A stretch of 64,000 nucleotides of DNA. Origin: an uncultured Hyphomicrobiales bacterium. GTDB lineage: Bacteria > Bacteroidota > Ignavibacteria > Kapaibacteriales > UBA7675. Shown piece after piece: positions 11,332-41,981 of the stretch; within the stretch, counting starts at the first letter, position 1, and the number at the start of each line of letters is the position of its first letter. The DNA is taken from contig CAYULF010000028.1 in assembly GCA_964445695.1 (NCBI GenBank), positions 7,103 to 71,102 on the forward strand, written 5' to 3'. The position numbers were made by a program, and so were the translations under genes. The notes under the pieces are model-generated. The model searched no databases and was not told the origin of the DNA. It was given only the letters and a program-made list of their open reading frames with translations.

Positions 11332-11361
11332 CTTATCTATTTACCGTAGAACGGCGATGAA

Positions 11362-16221: not shown

Positions 16222-16866
16222 CTAGTCGGTTACCTTCTCAAGCAGCCTATGCTTCAGAGCGTACTGCATCAACTCGGAGTTGGTGGCGAGTTTCATCTTC
16301 TCCAGAATGCGCTTGCGATACGTGCTGATCGTTTTCACCGACAGGTGCAGTTCCTTTGCAATACCTCCTACAGACTTGCCGGAACCGATCTGGCATAAAA
16401 TCTGGAACTCGCGGTCTGACAGAGTTTCGTGGGCGGCCAGATCCTCGGATTCACGGGCGGCATCCTCAATCAGTTTTTCCGCCAGAGATGGGCTCACATA
16501 GCGCCCGCCGGACAGGCACTTGCGAATAGCCGTCATCAGTTCGATTGTGTCTGCTGATTTGTCGACGTAACCACTGGCACCGGCTTTGAGCGCCCGCACG
16601 GCGTAACGCTCTTCCGGCTGAGCGCTTAGAATCAGAATGGGCATGTCCGATTTTGCACTGCGAAGGCTTTTCAGGAGATCGAGCCCTGCACGCCCCGGCA
16701 TGGAGAGATCAAGCAGAACGATGTCAAAATCCCGCTTTGCTATTTGCGCAAGCGCTTCTTCCCCATTTTGAGCTTCGGTGACTTCCATATCCATACTATA
16801 TGTCAGGAAGAGTTTCAGACCGCTGCGAAGAATCTGATGGTCGTCTGCTACCAGTGCTGTGTGCAT
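16222..16866 (-). CDS. NarL/FixJ-family response regulator (REC + LuxR HTH)
   Basis: VADDH, phospho-acceptor in LLDLSMPG, GASGYVDK, LSDREFQIL...IAKELHLSVKTISTYRKRILEKM. Confidence 0.95.
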   Translation of the reverse strand: MHTALVADDHQILRSGLKLFLTYSMDMEVTEAQNGEEALAQIAKRDFDIVLLDLSMPGRAGLDLLKSLRSAKSDMPILILSAQPEERYAVRALKAGASGYVDKSADTIELMTAIRKCLSGGRYVSPSLAEKLIEDAARESEDLAAHETLSDREFQILCQIGSGKSVGGIAKELHLSVKTISTYRKRILEKMKLATNSELMQYALKHRLLEKVTD

Positions 16867-17212
16867 GTACTTGCCGCAATAAATGTAATACGTTCCGTGG
16901 GTTGGCCGCGTAGCCGTCGGCGCTATCTATCAACGCCATGAAGTCGGCGTAGCCGTCAAATTTCCTGAGCTGCGAATGAACTTGCGGGCGCTTACCTTCG
17001 GACCGGCTGGGCAGCCCGGTGTTGCAAAGGGGTAAGTAAAAGGATTGGATGTTTACGCGCCTCTGACTCGGCAAAAATAACACAACAGAGGCAGCCTGCA
17101 AATTATCCGACTTTCAAAATACACCAGGCAAAAATCGACGAAATTTCGCCGAGAACATAAGATACTCGCCCTGAGATGAGAGTCAACAGACGAATTCGGT
17201 ACCAGCCGGGTC

Positions 17213-18697
17213 TCACTCAATAAGGGTGATTGCAACGCGGCGGTTACGTTTCCGACCTTCTTCTGTAATGTTGTTGGCGATCGGAGAACGTGCGCCAAGA
17301 CCAGAGCGGTAGAGTCGATTCGGGTTGATACCTTTTCGTTGAAGGTAATTGTAAACGTGGTTCGCACGCAACTCAGACACCCGCTGCGTTTCTTCGGGCG
17401 TTCCAAAGTTGTCCGTGTACCCTGCAATTTGAACTTCAACCGAAGGATTCTGATTCAAGAAATTGACCACGGCATCAAGGTAGTCATAGGATTCCCCTGT
17501 CAGGTCGGTGCTGAGTGCACCGCCATCAACTCCGAGAATGAATTCTTCATTGAGTCCGGCTAGCTGGATCGCAGGACGCCGCGGACGCGGAGTTCTCACC
17601 TCTGCACTGGCGACGGTAGGCGGCTCGACTGTCACCGAGTCTATGATCGGCGCTTCCGGAACAGGCCGTTGAATGATGTCCAAAGCTGCAACGGCGATCC
17701 TTTCACTCGGCTGAATGGACGGGATTTCATAGTCAAAGCGGTTGGTCAGGGTTGCCAGGTAAACCGTCGGTTCCAGATAGGTTGGGTCATAGCGCCGCAG
17801 AATCCGCGTTTCGCTGTTGAGTGCGACCTTCAGTTCCAATCCAAGTCGCATAAAGCCCAGGTTTAGATCGGAGTTGAGGTTGTTCGTCACTTCCGTGCCG
17901 TAATGCAGGCTGAGAAACGGAGCAAAACGGACCCGCGCACTTTGTGCCACTTCCAGCATCAGCACTTCGTAGGCGGCGCCCACTTGTATCCCCATGCGAA
18001 AACCGTGAACGTCCAATTGGACCGCACGGCGCTCGCGGATCAACGCTGTTGAGTCAACCGTCGGAACAACCACGGCTTCCGATCCGGTATTGAGCTCAAA
18101 ATCAAGTCCGCCAAAAACGTACAGCCCACCTACCACGTCCATTCGGGCAGATGGCGAGATTGTCAGATAATTAAATCGCGTCTCTCCTTCGTACTCAGCC
18201 AGCACGGATTGATTCTCCAGCGATTCAAAAGCTCCGTCGCGGACGTCAAACAGCGCAACATGTAGCCTCAGGCCCCAGCCCCACTCGGGTGGATTCCACT
18301 CTGCCATCCCACCGATGAAATATCCAAGCGAGGATCCGGAACCGAAATGTCGCCCGAGATTGCGAAGTTGCGCAGAGCGACTTAGCGCCAGATTCAGATC
18401 GCCGAGATAGGTGCCGAGGTTAGGACCGCCGAACACACCAAACCAGAAGTCGCCATAGCCGGAAGTTATTATCAAAGTGTCTTTGTTGTCGAGTACATCC
18501 ATGCGCGTGGCTGCGCCCACCAGTTGACGATCGGTGCTGACGTCATCAACTGAAAACTCCAGATCAGGCTGATCGTCGGCGGACGAAGATTCCGGGCCGT
18601 CGTTTTGCACTGCGAGCAGATGCAGGGGCAAACCTGCAAACAGGCACACAAGCAACAACAATTCTGGAATTCGACGCCGGACCATCGCGAAACACAC
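17213..18697 (-). CDS. OmpA-family outer-membrane protein (N-terminal beta-barrel, Pro-rich linker, C-terminal peptidoglycan-binding OmpA_C domain)
   Basis: Signal peptide; alternating aromatic beta-strands (FWFGVFGG, GYFIGGMAEW, MGIQVGAAYE); C-terminal IAGYTDN.G...N/S..LSELRA..V..YL...G...GLGARSPIANN..EEGRKRNRRV. Confidence 0.9.
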   Translation of the reverse strand: MCFAMVRRRIPELLLLVCLFAGLPLHLLAVQNDGPESSSADDQPDLEFSVDDVSTDRQLVGAATRMDVLDNKDTLIITSGYGDFWFGVFGGPNLGTYLGDLNLALSRSAQLRNLGRHFGSGSSLGYFIGGMAEWNPPEWGWGLRLHVALFDVRDGAFESLENQSVLAEYEGETRFNYLTISPSARMDVVGGLYVFGGLDFELNTGSEAVVVPTVDSTALIRERRAVQLDVHGFRMGIQVGAAYEVLMLEVAQSARVRFAPFLSLHYGTEVTNNLNSDLNLGFMRLGLELKVALNSETRILRRYDPTYLEPTVYLATLTNRFDYEIPSIQPSERIAVAALDIIQRPVPEAPIIDSVTVEPPTVASAEVRTPRPRRPAIQLAGLNEEFILGVDGGALSTDLTGESYDYLDAVVNFLNQNPSVEVQIAGYTDNFGTPEETQRVSELRANHVYNYLQRKGINPNRLYRSGLGARSPIANNITEEGRKRNRRVAITLIE

Positions 18698-20002
18698 TTA
18701 TCTGATTAGTTGAAGTTTGACGTCGGCCGTTGAAATCAAAACGGCCGGATCATCAACCGGGTATGCGGTGAACCGCACATTATATAGCCCTTGCGAGCTG
18801 AGACGCGCCGCCTCGAATCTGATCTCATAACGCCCGATCGGAGTAATCTGGCGGTCGATCAGCGTTTCAACTTCACGTCCATTGAAATCGTAAACTTTTG
18901 CCGTCAAAATTACGCGGTCGTCGACAGCATACTGAATAGTCGTCTGACGAGAAAATGGATTTGGATTTGCCTGTGCGGAACTGATGACCGAGCTCGGAAC
19001 GTACACACGCGTTTCGGCCAGATAAACCAGGCTGCCGTCAAAGTGATGATAGTACAGTCTATAAACGTACTCTTCTTCACGAAATTCAACCGTATCGCGT
19101 GTCGAGTAGTCAAGAGGCGTCAGACTCAGGCCGGGACTGTTCAGATCGGCGCGACGACAGTCCGGATCTTCAGCCGGATAAAGTTCATGGCAGGCAATCG
19201 TGTCAACAAAATCCAGTTCATCCCCCAGCTGTCCAATCGGCCTGATGCCACGCACGATAACAAAACCACGATTGGCATATTCGGATTCGGTTCGCCAGAA
19301 CAGTCTCACCTTGCGATCGCCCAGATACTCGCCATAGAAATCTACCAGCAGGAAAGGGGGCAAATCGATGTCGCGAACCTCATAGGAGGTGGCATAATCC
19401 CCGACAAGCATCGCGACGTTATCATCGGAAAAGAAAAAAGGCGCACGGTCATCAAAAATCTTGAACGCCGTGGCCTGAAATTTTGTCAGCGGCTGCACCC
19501 AGTCCATGCTGAGCGGCAGAAAGCCCGGCTCGGGAATAGAAACCCGAAAGCGACCAACCCGAATACTGTCATCAACAGCAACCGGAATACAATCGCCGAA
19601 ATTGCGGGGTCCCAGAACGCCGATACTCATGCGTCCCGGGAAGGTATTGTGAATGATTTCGTATTGGGCGGCAGGCAAATCGGAGAATCCCGGGAGCAAT
19701 TCCACTGAACATTCTTCCATTGCGATGCCGGGAAATTCCAGTTGGAATGTTCCATTTGCCCACATGAGCCATTCGTTGTCCGAGATATTTAGTACCCAGA
19801 CATCCAGGTCTACCGCATTGGGTTTGGGCTGCGCCACCAACACGGCGGAAACATGAGCAATCGTGTCCTGCTCATTTTGTGCAGAAGCCCTTTCTGGCAG
19901 TACAAGACATAGGACTGCGCAGGCAAGCGCCAGCAGAACCGCGTGCCGGCGGATTAGTACCGGCAGAAGTCGATGAAATTTGTGTGGGCGGGTTGTCTTC
20001 AT
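18698..20002 (-). CDS. Secreted protein (~434 aa): putative cohesin-like beta-sandwich + PVEL-type Ig module + T9SS type-A CTD
   Basis: Start re-set to MKTTRPHK at 20002 because the longer ORF overlaps the upstream gene. Signal peptide ends PERASA-Q. LLVDFYGE...VRLFWRTESEYANRGF module; ANPNPFSRQTTIQY...KVYDFNGREVETL...GRYEIRFEA...GLYNVRF CTD. The cohesin-like assignment is inference. Confidence 0.85.
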   Translation of the reverse strand: MKTTRPHKFHRLLPVLIRRHAVLLALACAVLCLVLPERASAQNEQDTIAHVSAVLVAQPKPNAVDLDVWVLNISDNEWLMWANGTFQLEFPGIAMEECSVELLPGFSDLPAAQYEIIHNTFPGRMSIGVLGPRNFGDCIPVAVDDSIRVGRFRVSIPEPGFLPLSMDWVQPLTKFQATAFKIFDDRAPFFFSDDNVAMLVGDYATSYEVRDIDLPPFLLVDFYGEYLGDRKVRLFWRTESEYANRGFVIVRGIRPIGQLGDELDFVDTIACHELYPAEDPDCRRADLNSPGLSLTPLDYSTRDTVEFREEEYVYRLYYHHFDGSLVYLAETRVYVPSSVISSAQANPNPFSRQTTIQYAVDDRVILTAKVYDFNGREVETLIDRQITPIGRYEIRFEAARLSSQGLYNVRFTAYPVDDPAVLISTADVKLQLIR

Positions 20003-20021
20003 ATCAGGCCATGCTCCCGGA

Positions 20022-22115
20022 TTATCGCGCAAAGGATTCCTTTTCGCGGTTGTTCCAGGAAACATTCGCATCTCGCGTTGTCACTATGCCGTTCATGTCG
20101 GTGTCGGGGTTGATATATCCCTCCGCATCGTGATTTAGCCAGGTTGCCGTAGCCGAAGAATCATAGTCTCTATCGTCAATCAAACCGTCGCCATTGGTAT
20201 CACCGCCGATCATAGCGTAATATTGACGTCCGGTTTCACTTTCATCAACAAGGTTGACGGCGTTGCTGCCGCCCAGCAGCAAAGCTGCACGCGTAAAATC
20301 AAAAGTGTGAATTTCCGGCGTCAGCATCTGTTGGTCCCGCGTTACCACGGCAAGGTGATTGCGATGGTGGACAACGATGTAGTAAGTGCCGGAATCGATC
20401 TTGATCTGAGTCTGGCCGTCACGATAGTCGACGATATTGCCGTCCCATGTGATCAGGCCGGTGCGGAAGCGGGATTCTCCGCCGCTCAACAACGTGCGGA
20501 ACTCCACCACGACCCAGTCAACAATTTCTTTGCGGCGGTCACCCAATTCTCCCATGGCAATAAACTGCCGGTTGGGATCGAGGCTGTAGGGATACATTGC
20601 CGGAGGAGAATCCGGCAGGAAGCCGCCTTCAGACAGATCCGCAGCCATACGACCATTGCGGTACGGACCTTCCATGAGAATGCGAATGTCGACAAGTGCA
20701 TTGGGCAGCAGTTCACCAATGCCGACTGCATAAAAACCGGAGCGTTGCAGATTTGCTACGCTGCCTTTGGCCCAGTTTCCGTCTATCTCAATTGTCTCAC
20801 GTGGTTCGGCCACGTTTTGCCAGGCATCAACGGTACTGTACTGCAGCTGAACATCAAAGGTGTCCAGACCGTTTAACTCATCCGTTTGATCCAGACGAAA
20901 CGCATAACCGAATTCGGCGTTAAAACCATCCTGCACAATTTCGCCGCCTTCATCTTCTGCCGTTACGGTAATGGATCGGAGAACTTTGTCTTCCGTGTCT
21001 ACCGTCAGCGGCAACGGGATAGTATCGGGCAACACTCGCACCGTCATGGCAGTCATTCCACCAAGACTTTGCTCATCGTCAAAAGCGGCATAGGTGTGTT
21101 TGTTGTTAAACACATTTTGCACTCCGCCCGCAGCCAGTCTCGTCCGCCGCACTGAACCGCGGACCTCAACATCGTCATTTCCGAATTCGGGATTTTCGAT
21201 GCTCGCATGTGTCAACACATGCTGTTCCTGACCAGGATCCGTATCGACATTGCTGCCAAGATATAATGTGTCGTTGACCGTCACGGACTGATTGAGAACC
21301 AATCCTTCCGTGGTTTCAAGCCGCAGATTCTGCAGCGTGTTGTCATCCACCGGAAGTTCCGCTCCGGAGAACATCTTCCCATCACCGATGTAGGTGACGG
21401 AAACATTTTCGCCAAACAGCGGAGCTTCGGCCAATTCGGATGCAACACTTCTTACTATCAACGCCGAGTCGCCAAGAGTAAAGTTGTTCGCCACATCGTT
21501 GCGGAACATACCGCGCAACAATTCCAGCCGACGGTTAACACTGAATCCACCACCGTTAACAACATCAGAACCAGCAGCATTGTCAAGTGCAAGAACTTTG
21601 AAACTTCCGCTGCCGTCAATCGCCTGTGCCTGAGTACCCTGCATCACAACTCGACCGTGCAGGAAATCGCGATTAATTATACCGTTGTGTTTAACACGAC
21701 CATGAGTTACAACTTCAGCGCCTTCACGCATGACGATTTGCACTTCACCTGAGGCGGTAACAAATGTGTCGAGCGTTACGATGGTATCAAGTGCTTCAAG
21801 TCGTTTAAGTCCACGGCCACTGAATTCGAGATTCTGGTAAACTATCTGGGGAACAAACTGCGATTGCGATTGGTCGTCGCCGTCATAAATAACGTGGCCG
21901 TCGATGGTGTCTTGTTGAAACGATGCCGCGGCACTGATGAAGAGACTGCCGGGATTGGTAATTCTTCCCTGGCTGCTTTCCGCTACGCTCGTTTCAATCT
22001 TGCCTGCGTTGTAAATCTGACCGGCATTCTTCATGGATCCACCTGTCCTGCCGAGCGCGATACCGGGCAGGATTGCTGAAAGGAGAACCGTCAATATGAG
22101 AATGCGCTGTTTCAC
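20022..22115 (-). CDS. Secreted beta-solenoid-type protein (~697 aa) with C-terminal EGPY...HRNHL module ending in dockerin-like duplicated Ca-binding loops
   Basis: Probable GTG start (VKQRILILTVLLSAILPGIALG signal). Shares the EVRGSVRR..FNN..V.P..KVLRSITV block with 22321-24603. The C-terminus has GDTNGDGLIDDRD and PDTDMNGIVTTRD. Confidence 0.88.
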   Translation of the reverse strand: MKQRILILTVLLSAILPGIALGRTGGSMKNAGQIYNAGKIETSVAESSQGRITNPGSLFISAAASFQQDTIDGHVIYDGDDQSQSQFVPQIVYQNLEFSGRGLKRLEALDTIVTLDTFVTASGEVQIVMREGAEVVTHGRVKHNGIINRDFLHGRVVMQGTQAQAIDGSGSFKVLALDNAAGSDVVNGGGFSVNRRLELLRGMFRNDVANNFTLGDSALIVRSVASELAEAPLFGENVSVTYIGDGKMFSGAELPVDDNTLQNLRLETTEGLVLNQSVTVNDTLYLGSNVDTDPGQEQHVLTHASIENPEFGNDDVEVRGSVRRTRLAAGGVQNVFNNKHTYAAFDDEQSLGGMTAMTVRVLPDTIPLPLTVDTEDKVLRSITVTAEDEGGEIVQDGFNAEFGYAFRLDQTDELNGLDTFDVQLQYSTVDAWQNVAEPRETIEIDGNWAKGSVANLQRSGFYAVGIGELLPNALVDIRILMEGPYRNGRMAADLSEGGFLPDSPPAMYPYSLDPNRQFIAMGELGDRRKEIVDWVVVEFRTLLSGGESRFRTGLITWDGNIVDYRDGQTQIKIDSGTYYIVVHHRNHLAVVTRDQQMLTPEIHTFDFTRAALLLGGSNAVNLVDESETGRQYYAMIGGDTNGDGLIDDRDYDSSATATWLNHDAEGYINPDTDMNGIVTTRDANVSWNNREKESFAR

Positions 22116-22230
22116 GTGTCTACGTTCTACTTCCCTGTTGGCGGAAAGGAAACCTGCTTGTTTAAGCGGAGTGACTTCAACCGTAAGCCTGCGTGCGTCA
22201 CTCACTTGCGTTGACAGCCTGTCTTTCTCC

Positions 22231-22265
22231 GGAGTACCGGTCGGGCTGTTCGCCCGACCGGTTCC
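22231..22265 (-). promoter_or_regulatory. Strong intergenic stem-loop without U-tract (mRNA-stabilising or attenuating element)
   Basis: Perfect 11-bp stem ACCGGTCGGGC-tgttc-GCCCGACCGGT (22236-22262), extendable by GGA/TCC. No T-run follows on the minus strand. Confidence 0.65.
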
Positions 22266-22320
22266 GAATCATGCTGTCTTTCCTGTCAAATCACAGAACC
22301 CATGGACGGATTCAAACTGA

Positions 22321-24603
22321 TTAGTCACAAACGCGGAGCGTACCGCCGTTGGCGATATAACCGGTGTTGTCGATCGAGTTGGCCTGGAAGTGACCAAGGT
22401 TGCTGCCGATATTACCGAAGTTGATGAAACCGGGGTAATCGATGGCATCGCCTTGCGTCGTCGTCAAAACTGCTTCCGTCGGAGCCGTCGTTGCGCCGAG
22501 ACCCGAAGCGTTCGTCAGCAGACCACCGGTGGCAAGCTGCCACGCAACCGTACCGTCCGTCTCATCGGCGGCGCCTGCGGCGTCATAACCGATAAGCAGA
22601 CCACCACCATCTTCGACCGTCACGTTGACTGCCAGAGCGTCGTCACGCGTGTTGTCGCCGCCCTGCGAATAACCCTCTTCAATCTGACCACCGATCGGGC
22701 CGGCAATCAGACCGTCAATACCGTCACGACGATAACCGACGTGAACCGTAAAGCCGTTGGGGATGATGACGTTGTCATACTCGTGCGGTTCCAGACCCTC
22801 GTCCCAGGTGCCCGGGTTCGACCAGCGACCGTCGGCAATAGCGTAGAAGGTCGTCGGTCCGCCACGCAGCAGCAGGTCGTTGGTTGCGTAGAATTCGCTG
22901 ATGGCGTTGCCCGGCATGGCAACCGCCGTAGCGTCGATACCTGCCAATTGCACATAGCGGAGCTGGTTGGCATTGTCGCGCGAAGGCGCATTACCCGTAG
23001 CAACTTTCTGCTCGTTCGTACCGTCGGCCTCGAAAAAGCGAAGCTGGTCTTCCGTCGTAACCGGCGAAGCACCACCCCAGCCGGCGCCCTGCTCGCCATC
23101 CTGCCAACCGGCGCGAATGGTAGCAGTCCAGGTGTCGTCGTCGAAGTCAAGCGTAATTTTACGATTTACGTCCGTCGAGGCGTCGTAGTTGTTCGGCGCG
23201 GTACCAGGCTGAACATTCATCTCGAAGTAGCCTGTGTACGGGTTGTTCGTGAACGTTACTTGCGATTCGGCGTTGTTGAATGTGTAAGGACCGGCGACAC
23301 CAGCGTCAACCGAACGACGCATGGCGCCTACAACTTCGGTATAGTTCGTGGCATCGTAATCGGCCGTTGCGTTGGGGTCCGTCATGAACAGCGTATTGGC
23401 GCCCATGTCCAGGTTGCCGCCTGCACCATCGGTAACACCGACGTCCAGGTTGTTGCTCATGTAAACATCGCCGCCGGCATCTTTCACACCGTTATCCGTG
23501 CTCAGGTTGCCATAGGGATTGGAAGCGACCGTCTGCATAACAACCTGGTTAGCCGCACCGCTGAACACAACCGTCGAAGCATCGTCGAAGTTGGCGTTCA
23601 CACCGGCGGCGTGGTTATTCGTCAGGCTGCCCGTCACAACCACGGTAGCGTTTTGCTCCAGATTGATCGTCGCGGTAGCCAGGTTGGCAAGCGTCATCGT
23701 GCCGGAGACCGTCACGTCGCCTGTACCGTCGCGGACAAAGAAATCACCATCGTTAACGTCGACGGTATTCGAAAATTCATTGGTCGCACCGGCGCCGGCA
23801 ATGTCAAGCAGACCGCCGTTGTCGATGGTAACCGTACCGGCAAATGTACCGTTGCCCGTTCCGGTCGTAAACTGACCGTCGGAGGCGCCGCCACCCGTGG
23901 CGTCGACCAACAGAGGCGCCGCGGCGTCCTGCGTAACTTCGTCGCCGACCGTCAGGCTACCGAGAACTTCAAAGCCGCCTGTGTTGCTGGCCAGCATAAC
24001 GAGATCGCCGTCGATCGTCGTTTCGTCGCCTGCTTGCAGCGTTTTGGTACCGGCCTCGCCCAACTGAAGATTGTTGTAGCGGTTTGTGCCGGCTGCCACG
24101 CCGACCTCAGCAAAGATGTTCTGTGCGAGCGAACCATCGTACGTGAACGTTCCGTTGTACGTACGGTTCGCGCCGCCGGCTGTGTAAACTTCGCTGACAA
24201 AAATTCCATCGGAGATGGTCTTCAGCGAGGCATCTTCAACCGTCAGGTTCTCGTAGTAGCGCCCCTGAACAGTTTGTGTACCGGCCGCTGCGGTCCAGAT
24301 CACTTCGTAAGGAATGCGCGTTCCGGCGGTTTCACCGGGCGTCAGTGCATCCACGAATACGCCGTTCTGGTCGGTGAAACGGTTGTCAATGCCTTCAAAG
24401 GTCACAGTACCGTCACCATTGAGTGCGGCGCCGGCGCCACCGCTCTGAAATTCACCGGCAGTCGTACAAAACACAATGTCGCCGATATTGTTTATCGTAC
24501 CGCCGTCATTGTTCAGATTCTGCGCAACAGCACCTGCTCCGGCGACCACGAGACCACAGGAGGTCGCAAGGGCAAGGCGCTTCAATTTGTGCTTAATCCG
24601 CAT
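22321..24603 (-). CDS. Secreted acidic Gly/Asn/Thr-rich beta-solenoid-type protein (760 aa), strongly codon-optimised; candidate major filament subunit
   Basis: Signal peptide MRIKHKLKRLALATSCGLVVAGAGAVA-Q. One FYAIADGRWSNPGTW..P..DNVII motif shared with the giant protein. Only two Cys in the mature chain. No T9SS CTD. Confidence 0.9.
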   Translation of the reverse strand: MRIKHKLKRLALATSCGLVVAGAGAVAQNLNNDGGTINNIGDIVFCTTAGEFQSGGAGAALNGDGTVTFEGIDNRFTDQNGVFVDALTPGETAGTRIPYEVIWTAAAGTQTVQGRYYENLTVEDASLKTISDGIFVSEVYTAGGANRTYNGTFTYDGSLAQNIFAEVGVAAGTNRYNNLQLGEAGTKTLQAGDETTIDGDLVMLASNTGGFEVLGSLTVGDEVTQDAAAPLLVDATGGGASDGQFTTGTGNGTFAGTVTIDNGGLLDIAGAGATNEFSNTVDVNDGDFFVRDGTGDVTVSGTMTLANLATATINLEQNATVVVTGSLTNNHAAGVNANFDDASTVVFSGAANQVVMQTVASNPYGNLSTDNGVKDAGGDVYMSNNLDVGVTDGAGGNLDMGANTLFMTDPNATADYDATNYTEVVGAMRRSVDAGVAGPYTFNNAESQVTFTNNPYTGYFEMNVQPGTAPNNYDASTDVNRKITLDFDDDTWTATIRAGWQDGEQGAGWGGASPVTTEDQLRFFEADGTNEQKVATGNAPSRDNANQLRYVQLAGIDATAVAMPGNAISEFYATNDLLLRGGPTTFYAIADGRWSNPGTWDEGLEPHEYDNVIIPNGFTVHVGYRRDGIDGLIAGPIGGQIEEGYSQGGDNTRDDALAVNVTVEDGGGLLIGYDAAGAADETDGTVAWQLATGGLLTNASGLGATTAPTEAVLTTTQGDAIDYPGFINFGNIGSNLGHFQANSIDNTGYIANGGTLRVCD

Positions 24604-24763
24604 GTTGATTTGTCCTTGATTGATGAAGGAATACAGCATGAATTGATTGAATTATGTGTTGTAATGTTTTTCGAGAGAACTGATTCTGTGCCAGAAAAGC
24701 GCTGGAATACGACGAGATGCCCAGGCTGTACTACAAACATAGCCCAGAAGCAAGCTTCAGTTC

Positions 24764-24783
24764 AATCCGTAGAACTACGTATT
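24764..24783. promoter_or_regulatory. 9-2-9 inverted repeat AATCCGTAG-AA-CTACGTATT (candidate NarL-family operator)
   Basis: Imperfect palindrome; 24761-24783 matches 41979-42001 at 22/23 nt. Confidence 0.7.
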
Positions 24784-24856
24784 TTGAGGAGGGAGAGCCA
24801 AGCAAGTACGACTGATTTTTCGTGCCATTAAATCAGAAGTGACGAAAACGTAAACG

Positions 24857-25498
24857 TCAGGGCAGATTCAATAGTGCAAATCTGATCAATCCGGCGACGT
24901 TCTTGATTTGCAGCTTTTGCATGAGGTTAGTGCGGTGAGCCTCGACTGTGCGCGGACTGATGAACAGTTCTTCAGCGATTTCCTTACTGGTCAAGCCCTT
25001 TGATATCAACTTCAGAATTTCCTGTTCGCGGTCTGACAGGTATATATTGACATTGGCAATGCTGAACTCATCACTGAAGTATGGAACTTCGTTGGGATTG
25101 GCCATTATCTTCAAAATTGACGAGCTGAAAACGCGCTGACCACGCACCACGGCATGCAGCGCATCAATCAATTCCTGACGGCCAACTTCTTTTGACAGGT
25201 ATCCGTTGGCCCCGGCGGACATGGCCTTGGTCAAGTGAAAATTGTCTTCGAGCGACGTCAACATGATGATTCGAATGCTCTTGTCGTACTCCTTCAGCTC
25301 CAGGACTGCTTCAATTCCGGTCTTTTCCGGCATCAGGATATCGATCAGTGCCGCATCGGGGTGGAGTTCTTTGACGAGCCGGACAGCATTGTTACCATCG
25401 GGCGCTTCGCCGACAATCTCAATGTCGTTTTCAGACTTCAGCAGCGTTTTCAATCCGAGCCGAAATACTTCATGATCATCTGCGATGACTATACGCAT
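24857..25498 (-). CDS. NarL/FixJ-family response regulator (REC + LuxR HTH)
   Basis: IADDH, LIDILMPEKTG, GANGYLSK, LSDREQEILKLI.KG.TSKEIAEELFISPRTVEAHRTNLMQKL; lies 63 bp downstream of the giant gene. Confidence 0.95.
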   Translation of the reverse strand: MRIVIADDHEVFRLGLKTLLKSENDIEIVGEAPDGNNAVRLVKELHPDAALIDILMPEKTGIEAVLELKEYDKSIRIIMLTSLEDNFHLTKAMSAGANGYLSKEVGRQELIDALHAVVRGQRVFSSSILKIMANPNEVPYFSDEFSIANVNIYLSDREQEILKLISKGLTSKEIAEELFISPRTVEAHRTNLMQKLQIKNVAGLIRFALLNLP

Positions 25499-25561
25499 GG
25501 TCGTAGGTGACAGGAGTGAAACAAGGTGCGGCTGCCGATTTCCCCTGGGCAGAAGCGCTCG

Positions 25562-37500: not shown

Positions 37501-40024
37501 AGGCATAGTCGCCGTTGACCGTGATTTTGGATCCGCTTTGAATGTCAATCAACGCAGCAGGAGCCGGATCGGCATTGACGCTGATTTCGTGGTTGCGGAT
37601 AAACACCTTGTCGGATAACTTATTCGGAATTGTGCTCGAAGGCGGGCCGCCAAACGTCGAACGCGACCATGTCGACGGATTTTCGTAGGGGCCGTCAATA
37701 CGACTGAAATATTGCGCAATACCGGCATCATCTTCACCGGCTGTCCAGTCCCCGTCCAACGCGTTAACTTCCTGCGAGTAAAACAGTTTAAAGTTAAACT
37801 GCACGATGTCGTCGGAAAGGCCCGGATCAATCTGCCAGAAACCACCCGCCTGCGGCCAGGAAGGCGAAAAGTAGAGAACGACGTAACTACCTTCGTTGCC
37901 GTTGACTTCGCTCTGAACGTATTCAAACTGGACGGTCGCACCGCGCGGATTGAGCGTGACAGCGTTGGTCGTTATCGTCCAGTATTTTTCGAGCGAGACA
38001 TTTGTAAGTTCAACTGCAGGATGTTCCTGCGTCACCGCACGCATCTGAACTTCGGCATTGGCTCCAAAGCTTGCGCCGCCATTCAGGAACTGCACCAAAC
38101 CGGGCGTATATGCTCCGGGCGTGCCCAGCGGAAATCGAAGATCAAGAGGTGTTGACGCTCCCTGAGCGACGGAGCGAATCAATGTGCCCGCATTTACTCC
38201 TTCCGCCGAAAAAATATTTTTGTCAACGTTGAAAACGCGTGCTGTTGCGGCGTCGCTGTAGATGTTAATTCCTGCAGCGAGTGTGAGGTTGTGCCTTGCG
38301 ATATCCAGTTTGTGACTGGATATGAGTCGTATATGCCCGAGCGCTACAACCGGCATATCCAGAACAACATTGCCCACACCACTTTTGTTTATCTGAATTT
38401 CCGGTAACGAGGTTGGGTTGGAATTGCTGCCACGAATAAGTTGTTCACCCGAACCATTGAAGATGATTCGCGAGGTGTTGCCTTCATTGACGGCATTAGC
38501 ACTGTTGCCGTTGTTAACAAAATCGCCGCCAATTCTGAGGTCGTTATTGGCAAAAATCAGTCGGTTCCCGCCGTCGCCGGCCAAGGTAAAATCGCTCAGC
38601 AGCGAGAGGTTGCGATCCAGGCGAACACGCGGATTCAGATTCGCTTCCATGACGAGTTCGTACACATCCGCCGCGCTCTGGATATCGTAGCGATCGTTGT
38701 CCTGATCCTGATTGTCGATGCGAAGGACGCCGCCGGTGACGCTGCCGGCACCGGCAAAGTTTACGTATTCTTCGCGACCGTTGCTGCCGTCAACTACGCG
38801 CTGCAGGACAATCTCGCCGCCGCTCCAGTCAAAAGTCGACGCGGCCGAGCTGATGTCGAACATGCCAAACGCACCGTTCGTGGAACGAGCGGCCGTTCCA
38901 ACGCGCAGAAATCCGCCACTCTGTTCGTAGGTCAGTTCATCCGCGGTGGAAGTTCCGGAAAAACGAGCTGCAACGTTTACCTCCCCTCCGAGAATTTCAA
39001 TCTGCGCTCCATCGTCGTACAACAGGCTGTTTTCATTGGCGCCGTCGCCGACATTAAACACACCCTCGCTGACGCGCAGTAAGCCTGCCACAGTACCGTC
39101 ACCGTTCTGACCTTCAGCCGTCACGGAAGAATTGTCAAGCCACAATCCACCGGTCGACGGAATGGTCCAGGCGGGGTTAACAAAAAATTCTGCCGACAGG
39201 GAAAACGCGCCGGCGAGGTGCAGCAGGCCGCCGTCAATAGTTAACCAGTTGTCGGGAACATCAAAGTCTGCGGCAGCGACATCAACGACGTCGGCAAGTG
39301 AGTTTTTGTCGACGGTAATTCGATTAAAACGCGTAACGGCTCCTGTACCGCCCAACGTGACGGAGCCGGAACCACTCAGCCGAAGATCAGCTGTAGCCGG
39401 ACCTCCGGGGCGCAGATCCAGGACATTCAAGTTCGTGAGAGAGCCGGAAATTTCGAGTTGGTGGCTGAGCGCATTGCCTGCGGTGGCAACATCCAGCGAG
39501 GCTGTCGCCGAAATGCTGAGATCGCCCTGAACCGTAACGGTGCGAGCGAAATTGTTAACAAATCTCAGCGTGCCGGTTGTAATCGGAAATGGCCCCGATA
39601 CTGTGAAATCGGCATCAATATTTACGAGGTTGCCTGGTGCATCCTTGAGAATGAGCAGTTGGTTGAACGTTGTAGTTGCGTTGCCTCCGATTGTCTGAGC
39701 AACCGAGCCATGAAATTCTACTTCGCCGTTGCCGGCGTTAAAGGTTCCGGAATTTGTCCAGTCACCGGTAAGGCTGATTCTGCCGTCGCCCTGCTGAGTG
39801 AGGTTGGACGCGGCGTCAATTTCGAGCGAACCGTTCAGGGTAAACAAAGCGCCGTCCGTCAACGTCAATCCTGCGCCGTTAGTCAGGCTGAACGGAGTCT
39901 GAGCCGGCATTGAAGACTGCGCCAGGAGCAAACAGAGGAGTATGGTCAGCAGGTTAACACAGTACCAGTGACGTCGTGTTCTCAGGCGGGGCCCAGTAGT
40001 ATGTAGAGATATGCGATTCCACAT
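25562..40024 (-). CDS. Giant (4820 aa) secreted repetitive adhesin-like protein with beta-solenoid repeats and one GEVED domain
   Basis: Uninterrupted 14.4-kb ORF with a signal peptide ending SSMPA-Q. Seven FYS.x.G.W....TW..P...D.V.I modules. GEVED signature WRVWIDFDRDGSFDD...ARMRVQM...GEVEDYTV. No T9SS CTD and no autotransporter barrel at the C-terminus. Confidence 0.93.
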   Translation of the reverse strand: MWNRISLHTTGPRLRTRRHWYCVNLLTILLCLLLAQSSMPAQTPFSLTNGAGLTLTDGALFTLNGSLEIDAASNLTQQGDGRISLTGDWTNSGTFNAGNGEVEFHGSVAQTIGGNATTTFNQLLILKDAPGNLVNIDADFTVSGPFPITTGTLRFVNNFARTVTVQGDLSISATASLDVATAGNALSHQLEISGSLTNLNVLDLRPGGPATADLRLSGSGSVTLGGTGAVTRFNRITVDKNSLADVVDVAAADFDVPDNWLTIDGGLLHLAGAFSLSAEFFVNPAWTIPSTGGLWLDNSSVTAEGQNGDGTVAGLLRVSEGVFNVGDGANENSLLYDDGAQIEILGGEVNVAARFSGTSTADELTYEQSGGFLRVGTAARSTNGAFGMFDISSAASTFDWSGGEIVLQRVVDGSNGREEYVNFAGAGSVTGGVLRIDNQDQDNDRYDIQSAADVYELVMEANLNPRVRLDRNLSLLSDFTLAGDGGNRLIFANNDLRIGGDFVNNGNSANAVNEGNTSRIIFNGSGEQLIRGSNSNPTSLPEIQINKSGVGNVVLDMPVVALGHIRLISSHKLDIARHNLTLAAGINIYSDAATARVFNVDKNIFSAEGVNAGTLIRSVAQGASTPLDLRFPLGTPGAYTPGLVQFLNGGASFGANAEVQMRAVTQEHPAVELTNVSLEKYWTITTNAVTLNPRGATVQFEYVQSEVNGNEGSYVVLYFSPSWPQAGGFWQIDPGLSDDIVQFNFKLFYSQEVNALDGDWTAGEDDAGIAQYFSRIDGPYENPSTWSRSTFGGPPSSTIPNKLSDKVFIRNHEISVNADPAPAALIDIQSGSKITVNGDYAFTGDTLRLADNTEFVNAHSEGFALVGASGAVQTTIRDLSAAAVYRFNGTASPQSTGDGLPSPVQTIIVDKAVGDTLVLGKSIAISDSLVIENGVLDLAAFTVNGNSSGRSLKMRDGELLVRNTFPTNYSAPTFTNGRVTFGGTGNQTIPSSGSSPAVLQYNELAISGERGPTAAISLRPQGQIRIGALLDISELKFAGAASQRFLTDGSTVVFNAAGAQSIPTRPLAPADSLVYLNYYNLVTSGSGVKSLSSTGASTFVVLNNLEIQTNTTLESAGFDLEVRGDWENSGGVFDAGNNAVIFRSESLGENINIRSRSTVDNAFNTVLFDGLGAITPLDDMAIDNDLLMGTSATLNMTSSTLSLAGDWINTGGTFSAGNSQVVFNGAAQQKLRVSGHGQEFYDLTVDNGGAGLDARFIGAATDGLTIENSLILTGGNIDVGERHIWTKGSIVRGGGAPGHVVGELRKTVATGPQSIEYEVGYAAAYTPVILAVDGTGGSAGVVGIRSDTVIASSSPVSTGVAPAGSLLNDSRHVRRQWRISVPSGGSFSLGADRSYTAELNFLAGDARNGADPLLYESRLWNGTSWILPNRFENPAQGLRTATTIAFEGLTEFGTLTIGEPDAYSFYSLVDNGDWTNPASWSTQGYGGAPASIVPTANARIYIGDSKTIRLDAAATVNGELTIDSSGVFNADINVVTGTGTFSMDVESMLMCGNVGGLRAAAASGSIQTSVRNYNPASHNRGTFVYTGALASQITGDGLPGTVARLIIQKNAADVTLDNSVNVTDTCRIESGELVLGAALNLQGDLRATTNASITPQTSTVTFNGSTGQSIIASASNLSLFNLTVDKAINTGLLTLGTNSALTVNGSLRFETGNQAYIDARSNTDCNVIVPGSVVRAGIGHVDGNLQMSVGTGTQTVLFHVGQDENYVPFTFRLEGSGGTAGLVGVRNNPGRHTALNHFNTPIDPNRYVPRFWRVTTPQNSTFVRGNRTVTVTCQILDPADAGLIDAIACSEIGIHRGATEGWQSLRPNTAAANYAAGFGCGDTRLTLGNIDYDGSASTIVANDFPVDTLLGSTQVLTDGSTLLGDFVIGNQNSIAITTFYSRTDGDWCDVNTWSTVDHNGAPASRHPNTQYDVVFIAANHTVSMDCNIGTSWLYGGGATENAFYGPNVTVKKTGTLMLGPFELRGAALTVEKGGTLGVGSQDGIRSGFTGNGNVLTYTRAFLDSMNIVYTAEGYNASVGGDFSYCRPGWNSNTHWISRVRVRDNSTATIFDNSTNNFGNGLFYYADSVITMTAGQQYDMIFNPSTGSTKRWRVWIDFDRDGSFDDNSSERMVDFTGSGQQTSPDFTIPGGTLPGVARMRVQMREGTNTSGPCNGSTGEVEDYTVLIVNDAIQVTQQTGNGLPDILWAFEVDAQRTNPGTIQLGKNIDVADSLVLTRGTFEIGSNDIDLGGDWVNNNSTAALNTGTGEVTCVGFKQQEIRGSAATSFNDFSLNKDENTLEFATSATIGGTMTFDEDNLVLLGNDIELTFEPAATLSPGAGVFSKTRMFRSDGSTSAGIIIKQFSTAAGAKSFLFPIGIDTVYNPADLSITGTYGALPTIGVRLRDGLHPQRLQDDMLKKFWTVTTSDISAIVSNSLQFGYEDVDITGDVSSYLPAFYRGTGEWEINVGDNPKATPSPVVATDAPFVDGDWSAGGKLVFFTGRIFYSRQTGDWSNPENWSNIGHAGISASYYPFELYSNDTVMVDGHIITMDLDSVMVDSLRIGGPFNGTEALGRGIVRFGATPGLKHLVVSRNLDVEYDGIIDGDNSGARYDTLTITGNMRNVAQSGSSAGVYLNNSPTNNTVLRFSGGGNNTLSGDGVWGDVARVRMQKSNGLADTLINLSATFSEATGRASNYLFRPLAGVLRHATSGTLGLSYGNVSVTMSPNTAFDIQDGEIKSSGSLISNAATRIRLRGGDLRVGDGLNEHFLYRAGTIVRVEDGEFDVAGIFGRFNAGSTVQYEQSSGGTTRVLRQGNSDASRIGFDMVNSGSSFSMGGGRIIVANGTSGASADFRVDAGSGSGMTGGLIQTGDSTFTNTGIIKLAGSMPIYSLHAVSGGVKTRVTEETFVISNGVEVDNAHRLQLYGNTLEVGGDIVNYGLFDAVSGSDPSDARLLVLNGSSDQTIYNDDAGGLQTYNLRLSKSGGNLILGSGANSNLIVHNTLEFAVGNQALIDARSNARYVEHSPTTSSTLQLIRNGQGHVDGRLYRWVDAGARIVDFAVGTSASLSAYTPAVFETQGSGGTAGLVGVMANGSNHPHISTANVKLDNNIQRYWNVTTAGAFDLGASRTFRLTLQFINPDDLRNSPELLFFEQHRYTPACPDLPALCPSGGSWATLSTPTRTDTTMRSSGNTEFGDFLLAELNSTTFYSRQNGDWTDPTTWSITGYTGAVAPRIPDQSTDIVRIGNGKRVSLPGSIITPTIRSVLVEVFNNLPGELYIEGDLGTVRGLSFELQDSCTLGMHHLQGIAPLGDRGAIQTDTRIFGVGRYVFNSTAGSQNTGDALPDSVAAIIVDNNSTPFNSVFLSLPTGANPVGVRDTLLIEHGTFNCGRRSLHLYGDMILRNNGLFDPLDASVAFRGQIDRDLRLDNHGGVDFYDISIEGEDLLVKSDYVASSTAHVHVINTLTFSSSGNIRVRDADRYVEVQVPGNVLRVNNAGHVDGKMRKPAGAGADNIVFEVGNLDDYTPVEVQLAAGGGGVAGSVDVISYTPVPDEEWIGNRLDAAAKIDRYWSVTGATTFALGSRTANLTLGFPAAELASLTTTNSIIRRRSIPLETPEWSDRRNLEWNVGAANVRLSVGATPWPGLGEFYIGERAQRIFYSRSDGDWNNSTSWSFTGFAGAAVPAGVYPNHDWQLAPGQEYEVRDSVIIGGGHEILLNTQPEIAYLELTSNGVLRIGAGSFLTESPYGTSASIVRDDAVVNIAAAVGIESGTSAGVWRFSDAVRVFEPRADYVFSGSLDQFFGGAFPLAVNDILVDTDNNTRNVMLNRDGIDMSGDLTVQTGRLVFDNNDAFGSPADQALLVNGRLSVAGGAAFEVETSGTGPRTHSLSLRGDVNIDGEWLMRPVPNNSNFKAETIFSSTATQNLSGVGAVRLHGVTLDKGAPATPVVSSVDLGVSRIGSGDAINFINGTWEQRAGTLTMDDGVGQSRTQTIAATGALHITGSGSYVMGQDGSGASQVIDGGELLLNSSGAVVIGNFDGNSLRYTNTAGSRISVLNGTMTVAGRISPEVAVDTYLLDYYQAGGQVNVATVGHDNATLGSFDLRAPGSSFAMAAGKLLVRNANMSSAVGRPADVNILASTVNVTGGTIQFGDALSAAAQEFDIEVSNGAIWNLAVGSTSAVLHPLAAAGNLRIQADVLNDGRIDFTELRSAAAAPDAVMTFQGGGSDDQNVTGAGVTALQHMTMNRAAGSGVVHLGHDVSVAGILDLREGANSNQQVVELGSSANLTVQSSAVGAIVDAGTSAAPYRYVRTSLLSGRLHRAVTASGGNYLFPLGSFDGGADKYTPAEFAAAVAGADGSVGVRVSPGQKADGGHLHLSGGASDYIRRYWAIGDVSTGVSGQWTFHYLDGVDDITGDESNFATIARWNPVDEGGSGSWRLMSGATLNSGGNIFTSPAALAASEFEGDWTLGDVGAFRRIFYSLASGLWNIGSTWTFDPSHLGAPVGPGIFPDNPQDSIVIGGGTAGTGDHVVLLDTDRTIGGMTVGTSLSNTGTLDLADRSISGEWFQTTTGATLRIGSPQGIVASPVSSGNVRTANRLFSTEASYVYSGTTNQVLGDGLPATMASFTVENSGATGNNVVTLDRDLTVSEAMRLISGVLDAVTFGVGNAGGGEAVMTSNTLLRIGGSADFSTALPGFANYRIDIQNTVEYYGINQIVTAPPNGLDGYGNVDINLSGTKTVTLPVRARGDLRVQNGAILHILPGVNAFEVFGAVSNDATILNEGRLKIGS

Positions 40025-40090
40025 GTTGAAAAGGCGTCTCCGGTACGGGAGTAAGACAGACTGTGTATGATGGCGTACAGGCAGAAAGGG

Positions 40091-41821
40091 CTATTCGATA
40101 ACTGTCACATAGTAATCCTGGGCAGCCGGGTTGGCGGGGGCGATGCCGATGTTAATAAACTTGACTTCGACCGAATTGTCGGCATCTACAAATGCGTGCC
40201 CGATAACTATACCTGCCGGCAATTGTGCCGAGGGCGAAACAAAAACCGTCGATCCGGCGCGCGCGCCGGTCACCGTAAAGGTTTCGGTGCGGAAGTCGTT
40301 GGACCCAAGGGCACCGACATCGACATTTACGGTAACTTTGATCACGTTTGCAATCGTGGTGCCGCGGGTTCCAAGCTTGACTGAACCATTCACATCAAGG
40401 TGCGCGGTCGGAGTCACTGTTCCGATACCCACGTTGCCACTCGTCGAAATGCGCATGTATTCGGTGTTGTTGCTGCGAAACGGCAGATCACGGGCATTTG
40501 TGGTACCGAGGAAGTCGCCGGGATCAATGCTGTTACCTGTGACCGACCATCCACGAAGGGAGCCCGTCAGCGAAATCCAGCCGGATCCGTCGTGACCTTC
40601 AAAGTCGGCGCCGGTAAAACGAATGCTACCGCCTGTGGCCTGGGTTGTATTGCCAAGACGAATGGCGCCGGCAACATCCAGCATTTGCTGCGGCGATGTT
40701 AAACCGATCCCCACGTTGCCCGCGGTCGTCACCAGGAGACGCTGCACATTGTTAACACGCAGTCGAAGATCCTGCGCGTTGAGCGTTCCAAGGAACGAAG
40801 CGGAAGTGGCGCTGTTCCCGTTTAGATTCCAGCCGGAACCACCTGCCCCGCCCCCGGTAAAGGAACGCCATTGCGTACCGTCATGTCCTTCAAAATCCGT
40901 TCCACTCCAGCGAATAACACCGCTGGTCGCCGTAGCTGCGCCGCCAAGACGCAAAGCACCGTCGACATCGAGTTTAACCTGTGGGTTGCCTACACCAATT
41001 CCCATGCGACCTGCGCCGCTGATGATGAGGTTAAAGCCCGCATTTGCAATTACGGTATTCGTCGTCATGCTGCCGCCCAGACCAACGGAATTGGCGGAGC
41101 GTTGCAGGCCATTGGAAAAAGTCAAGGGCAGTTCGTAGTCGGTCCCGCCGAGCGCGGTGGACAGACGGCCCGTGCCGACCGCGGCAGAAACCAGCCCACC
41201 GGCATTAAGGGCCGTGAAGTCTATGTCACCCGAGGAGACGATTCCGGCGGCGGCTTCGATCTGACCGGACGCGTTCACGCGAAATTCGGAGCTTGGCCCC
41301 ACACTCAGCAGGGACAAAGGATTTGTTGTTCCAATGCCGACATTGCCGCCGGCGGCAATGCGTGCACGCTCGGAGTTGTTCGTGCGCAACACCAGCGGCT
41401 GGCCATCGGTTGTACCGACGAAGTCAGATGCGGGATTGGTCGAGGCATTACCGCTCGAAGACCAGAAACCGGAATTAACAACATCGAGCGTGACCAGATC
41501 GCGCCAGTCGGGCGCTGCCGGCGTTCCGGCATTGTATTGAAATCGATTGTCGCTCGTGTTAAAGATCAAAAGAGCGGCCGCTGGTAAAACAATGGCGTCG
41601 CGTTGCGCCGTCGTCATGCGCGGTGTTAACAAACCGGAATTTGTTGAAGACAGCTCAAACAACGCCGAGGGATCCGGCGTGCTCGTTCCAAGGCCGGCAT
41701 TCTGCGCCTGTGCGGCTGTTAATACGGCCAACACCCCCGCCAGAAAAACCAGCACGCGCAATAGCGACCTGCTGAATTTGCCGAGATATAAGCGTACAGA
41801 AATTGTGGCAGCTGGATCCAT
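40091..41821 (-). CDS. Secreted fibre-like protein (~576 aa) with GNVGIGT repeats (Bacteroidota tail-fibre/trimeric-adhesin-like)
   Basis: Signal peptide ends TAAQA-Q. QNAGLGTSTP..SALFEL.S...GLL.PRMTTAQRDAI head. Three W...GN...FLGT.....L..R.NN..R..I...GNVGIG repeats and two IR..G.DFEGHDG..W units. The start is uncertain (41821 or 41884). Confidence 0.85.
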   Translation of the reverse strand: MDPAATISVRLYLGKFSRSLLRVLVFLAGVLAVLTAAQAQNAGLGTSTPDPSALFELSSTNSGLLTPRMTTAQRDAIVLPAAALLIFNTSDNRFQYNAGTPAAPDWRDLVTLDVVNSGFWSSSGNASTNPASDFVGTTDGQPLVLRTNNSERARIAAGGNVGIGTTNPLSLLSVGPSSEFRVNASGQIEAAAGIVSSGDIDFTALNAGGLVSAAVGTGRLSTALGGTDYELPLTFSNGLQRSANSVGLGGSMTTNTVIANAGFNLIISGAGRMGIGVGNPQVKLDVDGALRLGGAATATSGVIRWSGTDFEGHDGTQWRSFTGGGAGGSGWNLNGNSATSASFLGTLNAQDLRLRVNNVQRLLVTTAGNVGIGLTSPQQMLDVAGAIRLGNTTQATGGSIRFTGADFEGHDGSGWISLTGSLRGWSVTGNSIDPGDFLGTTNARDLPFRSNNTEYMRISTSGNVGIGTVTPTAHLDVNGSVKLGTRGTTIANVIKVTVNVDVGALGSNDFRTETFTVTGARAGSTVFVSPSAQLPAGIVIGHAFVDADNSVEVKFINIGIAPANPAAQDYYVTVIE

Positions 41822-41981
41822 ACGTGCGTCCGAATTAGCGTGCAGTCGGGGCAAGACAGTCCCTGATCGCTGTGGCGGAGCCACGCGACCTTACGTTTCC
41901 AAATTGCACTGGTCTTGCTGGAGAGCTGAAGCCTATGCTTCAACATCGGCTACAAAGTTCTTCAAAGCAAAGCTCTTATTC

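Follow-up and report, generated by a model that had tools for sequence, protein, structure and literature searches.

What structure is built by a row of exported proteins, three core members of which have no annotated family? This question is raised by a cluster of eight minus-strand genes, all co-oriented (16222-41884), in a 64,000-nucleotide stretch of DNA, referred to here as the window, from an uncultured Hyphomicrobiales bacterium that GTDB places in the Kapaibacteriales (assembly GCA_964445695.1, contig CAYULF010000028.1, positions 7,103 to 71,102 of the forward strand). The cluster encodes, in the order of transcription, a tail-fibre-like protein, a giant exported protein, a response regulator, protein A, its paralogue B, protein C, the OmpA-family protein D and a second response regulator. 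A preliminary description of this DNA had read six of these genes as a surface-filament system, with the giant as tip, A as shaft, B as a dockerin-like base and C as a cohesin-like anchor sorted by the type IX secretion system (T9SS). All six exported proteins do carry signal peptides at their N-termini, readable from the sequence, and the remaining two genes, which that description left unmentioned, encode the LuxR-type regulators.

The answer given here has two levels. The cassette is a genuine envelope system, so far undescribed and spread throughout the lineages Kapabacteria, Ignavibacteria and Chlorobiota. To the reading that it places a modular fibre of beta-helix proteins on the outside of the cell we assign a probability of about 0.5, the filament model being plausible and only partly supported.

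A conserved cassette of envelope proteins

A genome scan, with one genome per species, revealed a relative of A in 97 genomes, of which 80 loci were retained, nearly all labelled Kapaibacterium/Kapabacteria, Ignavibacteria, Chlorobiota or Chloroherpeton. L059 and L072 are carriers among the metagenome-assembled genomes with the Chloroherpeton label. Gene order was counted by mapping all open reading frames (ORFs) of the retained loci with hidden Markov models (HMMs), the denominator being in each case the loci with room for the feature. Gene B lies directly after A in 67 of 69 loci, and C directly after B in 62 of 63. D adjoins C in 25 of 60 loci and follows it after one extra gene of about 1.9 kb, E, in 28 of 60, which makes 53 of 60 loci in total with D next to C or one gene off. 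Since this order has been kept although the cassette proteins of relatives show only 26-60% identity to the window copies, it must be under selection. Moreover, the B, C and D genes are separated by gaps of 20 nt or less, or overlap. The synteny search that the preliminary description had named as a check thus ended in its favour, the order A-B-C-(E)-D being held in about 80 species-level genomes.

The giant is an accessory part, being the gene next upstream of A in 39 of 60 loci; a tail-fibre-like gene takes this place in 5 of 60. As read from these loci, the A-B-C(-E)-D part is constant, and the slot upstream of A is occupied by differing adhesin-like proteins across species. A 96%-identical locus is present in the metagenome-assembled genome GCA_030430495.1, and the window's A gene occurs in aquaculture metagenomes. 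In a HMMER search of 1.84 billion representatives, the A family amounted to 200 clusters when the threshold was E<1e-30 and to 695 when it was E<1e-3. Nearly all have 700-850 residues and match to the last residue; judged by this search, the A family is small and lineage-restricted. Word-index searches for homologues found 16, 14 and 4 relatives for A, C and B, respectively, with no informative names, and literature searches found no description of this cassette.

With Pfam and NCBIfam, matches to the eight cluster proteins were limited to the regulators, the OmpA domain of D, the GEVED domain of the giant and a sub-threshold T9SS tail in C, and neither A nor B nor the N-terminal part of C matched any Pfam, NCBIfam or PHROG family. 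Several of the signal peptides end in A-x-A followed by Q (A27/Q28 being invariant across the A family), which agrees with the Bacteroidetes Q-rule (PMC5837995). The features of the cluster are collected in Table 1.

Table 1. Genes and sequence elements of the cluster (window coordinates; aa, amino acids)
Feature	Coordinates	Strand	Remarks
Upstream element 1, ATACGTATTTCTACGGATTGAA, imperfect inverted repeat	41979..42000	-	precedes the fibre-giant-regulator transcription unit
Tail-fibre-like exported protein, 576 aa from ATG 41821	40091..41821	-	ORF reaches GTG 41884 (597 aa)
Giant exported protein, 4820 aa	25562..40024	-	GEVED and A-like units
NarL/LuxR-family response regulator, 213 aa, between giant and A	24857..25498	-	Response_reg, GerE
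A promoter region: upstream element 2 and -7-type box	24734..24782	-	sequence element comparison
Protein A, 760 aa, beta-helix	22321..24603	-	AlphaFold2 model
Hairpin, 59 nt past the A stop	22236..22262	-	11-bp GC-rich stem, 5-nt loop, no T-run
Protein B, 697 aa from GTG 22115	20022..22115	-	ORF reaches 22205; paralogue of A
Protein C, 434 aa	18698..20002	-	signal peptide, beta-sandwich, FN3-like domain, likely T9SS-type C-terminal domain
Protein D, 490 aa (494 aa with GTG 18697 as start)	17213..18685	-	OmpA PF00691
Second NarL/LuxR-family response regulator, 214 aa	16222..16866	-	Response_reg, GerE

Protein A, its relatives and the proposed anchor proteins

Pairwise BLASTP among the 4820-, 760- and 697-residue proteins gave weak matches only, and profiles were required to recover the modules that the three had been said to have in common. 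These modules proved to be genuine. Between the family profiles of A and B, hhalign gave a probability of 99.4% (E 5.9e-21) over residues 1-497 of A and 1-420 of B, and the A-family HMM found the giant at E 3e-8, with 18 partial matches. The giant carries seven FY..G.W....TW motifs (at residues 772, 1465, 1939, 2543, 3244, 3693 and 4511) and four segments of the HV.G.LRK type, each 160-199 residues ahead of the next FY..G.W....TW motif; in A, the segment EVVGAMRR stands 163 residues ahead of its motif of the same kind. From the HMM matches and this like spacing, A corresponds to one repeat unit of the giant, which is a tandem array of about eight A-like units of beta-helix and beta-sandwich. 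The giant also contains a GEVED domain (PF20009) at residues 2151-2224 (65.1 bits, cut-off 24.4, E 1e-17), defined as a fibrillar-adhesin domain (PMC10952558), and the same domain occurs in the giants of loci L001 and L006.

The AlphaFold2 models of A and C were built on alignments of 15-17 sequences. For A (predicted local distance difference test, pLDDT, 76; predicted template modelling score, pTM, 0.74; pLDDT >90 for residues 100-390) the model predicts a beta-helix at about 28-390, an inserted beta-sandwich at about 398-560 and a less confident beta-helix at 570-760. When this model was compared with the PDB by Foldseek, no significant match was obtained (best E 0.07), the list of weak matches being made up mostly of right-handed beta-helix proteins (tailspikes, Ag43, Hbp, tapirin, a CsgA).

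Related motifs are found at the two ends of A. A C-terminal motif, [VL].N.[GA].I.N.G.IEIG., was found 1-3 residues from the stop in about 65 A proteins and about 40 giants; the window A ends in ...IDNTGYIANGGTLRVCD and the window giant in ...NDATILNEGRLKIGS, both fitting it. A looser form of the motif is nearly confined to the two outermost tenths of A and to the initial tenth of B, and both mature A and mature B start with Q-N/x-L/F-x-N-x-G-x-I-x-N-x-G-x-I-R/K. The N-terminal 420 residues or so of B are paralogous to A, and they are followed by a conserved domain and then by a dockerin-like pair of calcium (Ca) loops; the C-terminal end motif is missing from B, the dockerin-like tail standing in its place. 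In addition, six divergent representatives of 1451-1581 residues (P0100, P0121, P0127, P0137, P0142, P0155) are seamless A-B fusions, in which the match to the B profile (20-679) begins immediately behind that to the A profile (20-725), the B signal peptide is missing and the A end motif continues straight into the B start motif. These fusions offer good evidence that the C-terminus of A and the N-terminus of B are physically continuous.

The last 230 residues or so of B are well conserved (...LEG.YR.G.M...DWVV.EFR...RHRNHL...GD.NGDG.ID...D.N.DGIVTTRD.N.SWNNRGR.), with the Ca-loop pair encoded at about 20025-20210. The Pfam family Dockerin_1 (PF00404) matches 12 of 43 B-family members (best E 7.2e-6), and the best match of the tail profile in the PDB is the Ruminococcus dockerin 5lxv_B (E 0.039), with both Ca loops aligned. 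Both loops are also legible in the window B, as GDTNGDGLIDDRD and DTDMNGIVTTRD. The term dockerin-like, already applied to this tail in the preliminary description, seems fair at the family level on the basis of these profiles. That the tail may bind C is suggested only by the invariable adjacency and the tight coupling of the two genes.

The model of C (pLDDT 85.9) consists of a signal helix and three beta-sandwich domains: a unique one at 46-211, an FN3-like one at 218-335 and a T9SS-type C-terminal domain (CTD) at 340-432 (DNA about 18701-18985). Its best Foldseek matches are tandem FN3 proteins, PorU and macroglobulin (MG) domains. The family Por_Secre_tail was found in 18 of 41 C-family members (best E 1.3e-4). 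Furthermore, the FN3-like domain and tail of C are homologous (E 1e-16 to 1e-19) to the tails of three proteins of about 1500 residues encoded downstream, and these give Por_Secre_tail/FlgD_ig matches near but below the cut-offs. Because of this homology, the T9SS tail of C was accepted as likely. No T9SS CTD model of Pfam or NCBIfam matched A, B, the giant or the 576-residue fibre protein at E<=0.01, and so the earlier statement that C carries the only T9SS CTD of the cluster stands in so far as the domain is likely in C and was found in none of these four, the score of the window copy being taken up below.

The three downstream proteins are tandem paralogues on the minus strand (1399-15915), 50-54% mutually identical and with T9SS-type tails, of which the last 180 residues or so are the part homologous to C. 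The copy nearest the cluster (11362-15915) has an effective number of codons (Nc) of 39.3, a codon bias as strong as that of A.

In protein D, an OmpA peptidoglycan-binding domain (PF00691, 65.8 bits, cut-off 27.2, E 4.7e-18) comes after an outer-membrane beta-barrel. In its family, the OmpA domain is present in 32 of 32 members and an N-terminal OMP_b-brl_2 domain in 8 of 32. The gene had been described as abutting C at 18697/18698, which holds if translation starts at GTG 18697. The idea that D might be a PorP/SprF-like or usher-like translocon was dropped, its N-terminus matching only the small OMP_b-brl_2 barrel. The intervening gene E of relatives is not present in the window and encodes about 630 residues; at the one locus checked (L083, 15543-17435), its product is a WD40 beta-propeller with a weak T9SS tail. 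In Porphyromonas, a propeller and an OmpA_C-type domain are united in a single protein, PorE, and E and D jointly carry these two domains.

Ahead of the giant lies the gene of the 576-residue protein, for which no Pfam family was found. It matches PHROG tail-fibre families (E 2e-15 and 3.5e-11) and, in the PDB, fibre proteins of Bdellovibrio (8ond, Bd2133, E 6e-4, as well as 8ol4, 8oml and 8ojn), which belong to the chimeric (MAT) fibre proteins of this organism (PMC10769870). Its N-terminal 140 residues are 44% identical to the product of the gene upstream of the L004 cassette. Fibre-like genes upstream of the cassette in L024, L037, L054, L058, L060 and L064 differ widely in length, encoding 490-1230 residues, and that of L024 (12520-15369) ends in a BclA_C-like (C1q-type) head (E 1.3e-4); this suggests that such genes may encode interchangeable tips on a common N-terminal part. 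Outside the cluster, the minus strand of the window also encodes, at 47308-50298, an exported protein of 996 residues with an SMC-like, probably coiled-coil, middle region and a C-terminal region matching the Cbp1 collagen-binding glycoprotein adhesin family (E 8e-14, under the curated cut-off).

Expression and control

Gene A had been described as the only codon-optimised gene of the cluster, and its bias is indeed the strongest, with an Nc of 39.7 versus 49-55 for the other cluster genes and almost no A-ending, AGR or CGA codons. An ORF of 813 codons on the plus strand (22390-24831), antisense to A, is most likely a by-product of the strong third-position bias of A and not a gene.

The abundance proposed for the product of A could be followed at the transcript level in two other species, where A dominates the metatranscriptome contigs of the cassette. 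In the complete genome of Ca. Kapaibacterium Ch6 (L083), four microbial-mat metatranscriptome runs from two studies cover A with one full-length contig of 2.1-2.5 kb at a depth of 15-32, and cover the giant, B, C, E and D with patchy contigs of 160-460 nt at a depth of 2-7. In the second species (L027), nearly all contigs of four wastewater metatranscriptomes map to A. The sole RNA contig found for the strain of the window, of 225 nt and from a seawater metatranscriptome, also lies on A, and for L010 the search returned no RNA run. Contig depth is a crude measure of expression, but these data sets agree with one another. The same mat contigs of L083 differ from the genome in the region encoding the C-terminal third of A (11347-12340), where they carry a replaced segment of 66 nt. 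They are near-perfect over the first two-thirds of the gene and show 73-91 differences in the last 650-930 nt, so that strain variation is concentrated in the C-terminal third of A.

The stabilising-type hairpin reported after A is borne out both in the window and among relatives. Its core, ACCGGTCGGGC-GAACA-GCCCGACCGGT, folds with a z-score of -5.3, and in 53 of 68 loci a hairpin of -15 kcal/mol or lower occurs in the 110 nt that follow the A stop; applied to the B stop, this test gave 11, and applied to a coding control, 5. Across loci the A hairpins have unrelated sequences, and in AT-rich genomes many of them are followed by T-runs. Reduced read-through into B-C-D, a more stable A message, or a combination of the two is the probable effect of the hairpin. 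Codon bias, transcript excess and hairpin together mark A as the major product of the cassette.

Both transcription units of the cluster had been said to share an operator-like palindrome. The 22-mer ATACGTANTTCTACGGATTGAA occurs exactly twice in the window, at upstream element 1 and at 24761-24782, where 0.01 occurrences are expected by chance. The palindrome proper, CGTAGTTCTACG, lies at 24768-24779 inside upstream element 2, and the A promoter region also contains an TATGTTTG box at 24734-24741. An element of the form (C/A)CGTA-N4-TACGGATTG is found about 25 nt upstream of a TAnnTTTG box, which we take to be the Bacteroidota -7 element, ahead of A in L004, L008, L009, L010, L012 and L013, and it is also found ahead of the fibre-like gene in L004. 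A search for k-mers enriched upstream of distant, AT-rich loci returned AT-rich words only, and the promoter element is therefore documented for the subclade of the window only.

Both regulators score above the cut-offs for their two domains. The one between the giant and A (Response_reg E 5e-27, GerE E 4e-22) has an orthologue directly upstream of A in L008, L009, L010 and L041, and the second (Response_reg E 5e-31, GerE E 3e-14) is also found in the 96%-identical locus (L001). In L083, a histidine kinase gene directly follows D. Control of the cassette by a linked two-component system is likely from this gene content, and the upstream element may be an activator site for the linked regulator.

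Proposed assembly, its rivals and known systems

These findings can be joined in a model of a modular fibre. In it, B would be the base, and its N-terminal beta-helix end would be continued end-on by A, the abundant subunit, of which each fibre would presumably contain more than one copy. Since A and the giant share the C-terminal joining motif, either of them could cap or extend the free N-terminal end of A or B. The Ca-binding dockerin-like module of B would be held by the unique N-terminal domain of C, which itself would be sorted by the T9SS and fixed on the outer cell face, and D would tie the outer membrane to the peptidoglycan at this site. A linked LuxR-type response regulator would act at the conserved palindrome just upstream of both promoters, and the hairpin after A would keep A far above B, C and D. 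A bolder version, less likely but with a fair chance of being true, is that of a new filament class, in which large beta-helix subunits with uncapped matching end rungs would be stacked head-to-tail and non-covalently, the giant forming the tip, A the shaft and B a base plugged by its dockerin-like module into a T9SS-sorted receptor, and in which the CTD-less subunits might be exported together with this receptor.

A number of observations weigh against the fibre model. The cohesin-like label given to C found no support: no Pfam match to cohesin (PF00963) was found among 41 family members at E<=0.1, the family profile searched against all PDB sequences gave only a FlgD Ig-like match (E ~1), and no cohesin appeared among the top 50 matches of the whole chain in Foldseek. 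The window C scores under the curated cut-offs of the T9SS CTD models TIGR04183 and PF18962 (16.5 bits, cut-off 23, and 16.6 bits, cut-off 27; E 0.006-0.01). Likewise, the tail of the window B has no Pfam dockerin match at E<=1 and lies below the curated cut-off, so that the dockerin-like C-terminus holds for the family and not, in Pfam, for the window copy. Moreover, Pfam and NCBIfam revealed no T9SS CTD, lipobox or other recognised outer-membrane export signal in A, B or the giant, and no conserved Cys was seen in the signal peptides of the A family; the surface location of these three proteins is therefore an assumption of the model. Finally, at the one fusion locus examined (L087, 5580-9935), a gene for an A-B fusion is coupled to a C gene downstream of it, and neither a separate A nor a giant nor a D lies nearby. 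A single A-B polypeptide with C is all that this locus contains, and a chain of many A subunits per base is therefore not essential.

This last point leads to the main rival, a non-polymeric surface complex or coat in which one A (or giant) would be joined to one B held by C, acting as an adhesin or in an S-layer-like manner, and in which the excess of A transcripts would reflect turnover, shedding or dense surface coverage. The fusion lineage, with its single A-B polypeptide and C, favours it, as do the failure of A to match solved polymerising subunits significantly (the best Foldseek E of 0.07 again) and the presence of the beta-helix adhesins Ag43 and tapirin among its weak matches. Several features of the cassette speak against it, namely the like rung-type motifs at both ends of A, the transcripts of A, which in two species are roughly 3-10 times more abundant than those of its neighbours B, C and D, the conserved hairpin that separates A from B, and the giant, itself a covalent chain of A-like units. 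We regard a one-to-one complex as possible rather than probable.

It is improbable that the structure lies within the periplasm or the outer membrane, with A, B and the giant inside, tied to the peptidoglycan through D, and only C exported. In the three proteins placed inside, a Sec signal peptide but no signal for outer-membrane targeting was found, which would suit such an arrangement, and so would the OmpA domain of D, which is predicted to bind peptidoglycan. Nevertheless, the adhesin-type GEVED domain of the giant (PMC10952558) and the tail-fibre-like partner gene point outward, as do the T9SS tails of C and of the optional WD40 gene E, and the dockerin-like module of B would need a partner in the compartment of mature C. 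As for the view that these are unrelated exported proteins brought together by chance, nothing speaks for it beyond the missing family annotation of A, B and C. It is refuted by the synteny, kept at 26-60% protein identity over about 80 species, and by the A-B fusions, and the homology of A, B and the giant and the common promoter element stand against it as well; its probability is negligible.

Kapabacteria, Ignavibacteria and Chlorobiota are common in mats, wastewater and aquaculture, and their cell surfaces are almost uncharted. As the cassette has been kept in nearly every genome of the group examined, and A dominates in two species, it probably specifies a major envelope structure. If the fibre model is true, it would represent a new way of building an appendage, from beta-helix subunits stacked end-on upon a base that a secreted anchor keeps in place. 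For the T9SS, it would pose the question of whether proteins devoid of a CTD can be exported or displayed by means of a partner that bears one.

The cassette may be compared with several known systems, and no defining component of curli, pili or cohesin-dockerin systems is present in the cluster, as far as its sequences tell. The absence of any hallmark of chaperone-usher, type IV, type V (lipoprotein) or sortase pili, noted earlier, was confirmed with Pfam and NCBIfam for the eight cluster proteins and the flanking genes. The layout recalls that of pilus operons of the chaperone-usher and sortase kinds, in which a large adhesin is combined with an abundant subunit, a minor paralogue of it as the base, and an anchor, and in which a transcript-limiting hairpin comes after the gene of the abundant subunit. 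However, the cluster holds no usher, chaperone, sortase, LPXTG-type or lipoprotein pilin family, and its subunits are beta-helices and not Ig-like pilins. With cellulosomes it shares, at the family level, the duplicated Ca-loop dockerin signature in the tail of B, followed in the next gene by a beta-sandwich protein that is probably sorted to the surface, and an adjacent pair of cohesin and dockerin genes is reported from Chlorobium chlorochromatii, where a type I secretion system (T1SS) route is described (bioRxiv 10.64898/2026.03.19.712371). It differs from them in the lack of cohesin similarity in C and of carbohydrate-active enzymes, and in a likely T9SS CTD in place of a surface-layer homology (SLH) domain, sortase or T1SS.

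A giant repetitive surface adhesin in a T9SS-bearing organism of the Fibrobacteres-Chlorobi-Bacteroidetes (FCB) group also brings to mind SprB and RemA, the type of the T9SS-displayed giant adhesins of Bacteroidota. Here, in contrast, the giant has no type A or type B CTD, the cluster no PorP/SprF-type gene, and CTDs are confined to C and the E of relatives. The passengers of type V secretion (Ag43, Hbp, FHA) belong to the same fold class and were among the top non-significant Foldseek matches of A; the beta-helices of Ag43 self-associate. In this case no autotransporter barrel, two-partner secretion (TPS) domain or TpsB/POTRA partner was found in the cluster with Pfam and NCBIfam. The resemblance to the MAT fibres of Bdellovibrio and to phage tail fibres (Bd2133, PHROG) concerns only the 576-residue protein, an accessory gene. 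With curli, the likeness is one of logic, since neither a curlin repeat nor secretion genes of the CsgG/E/F type were found in the cluster with the same databases, and the subunits of the cassette are five times larger, carry an inserted beta-sandwich and would be anchored through a dockerin-like module and a T9SS-sorted protein. Within that logic, the abundant beta-solenoid subunit, the less expressed base paralogue and the LuxR-family regulator correspond to the major subunit CsgA, the nucleator and anchor paralogue CsgB, and CsgD, the end repeats are likewise proposed to make the head-to-tail contact, and the CsgA of Pontibacter (8c50) is itself among the weak Foldseek matches of A.

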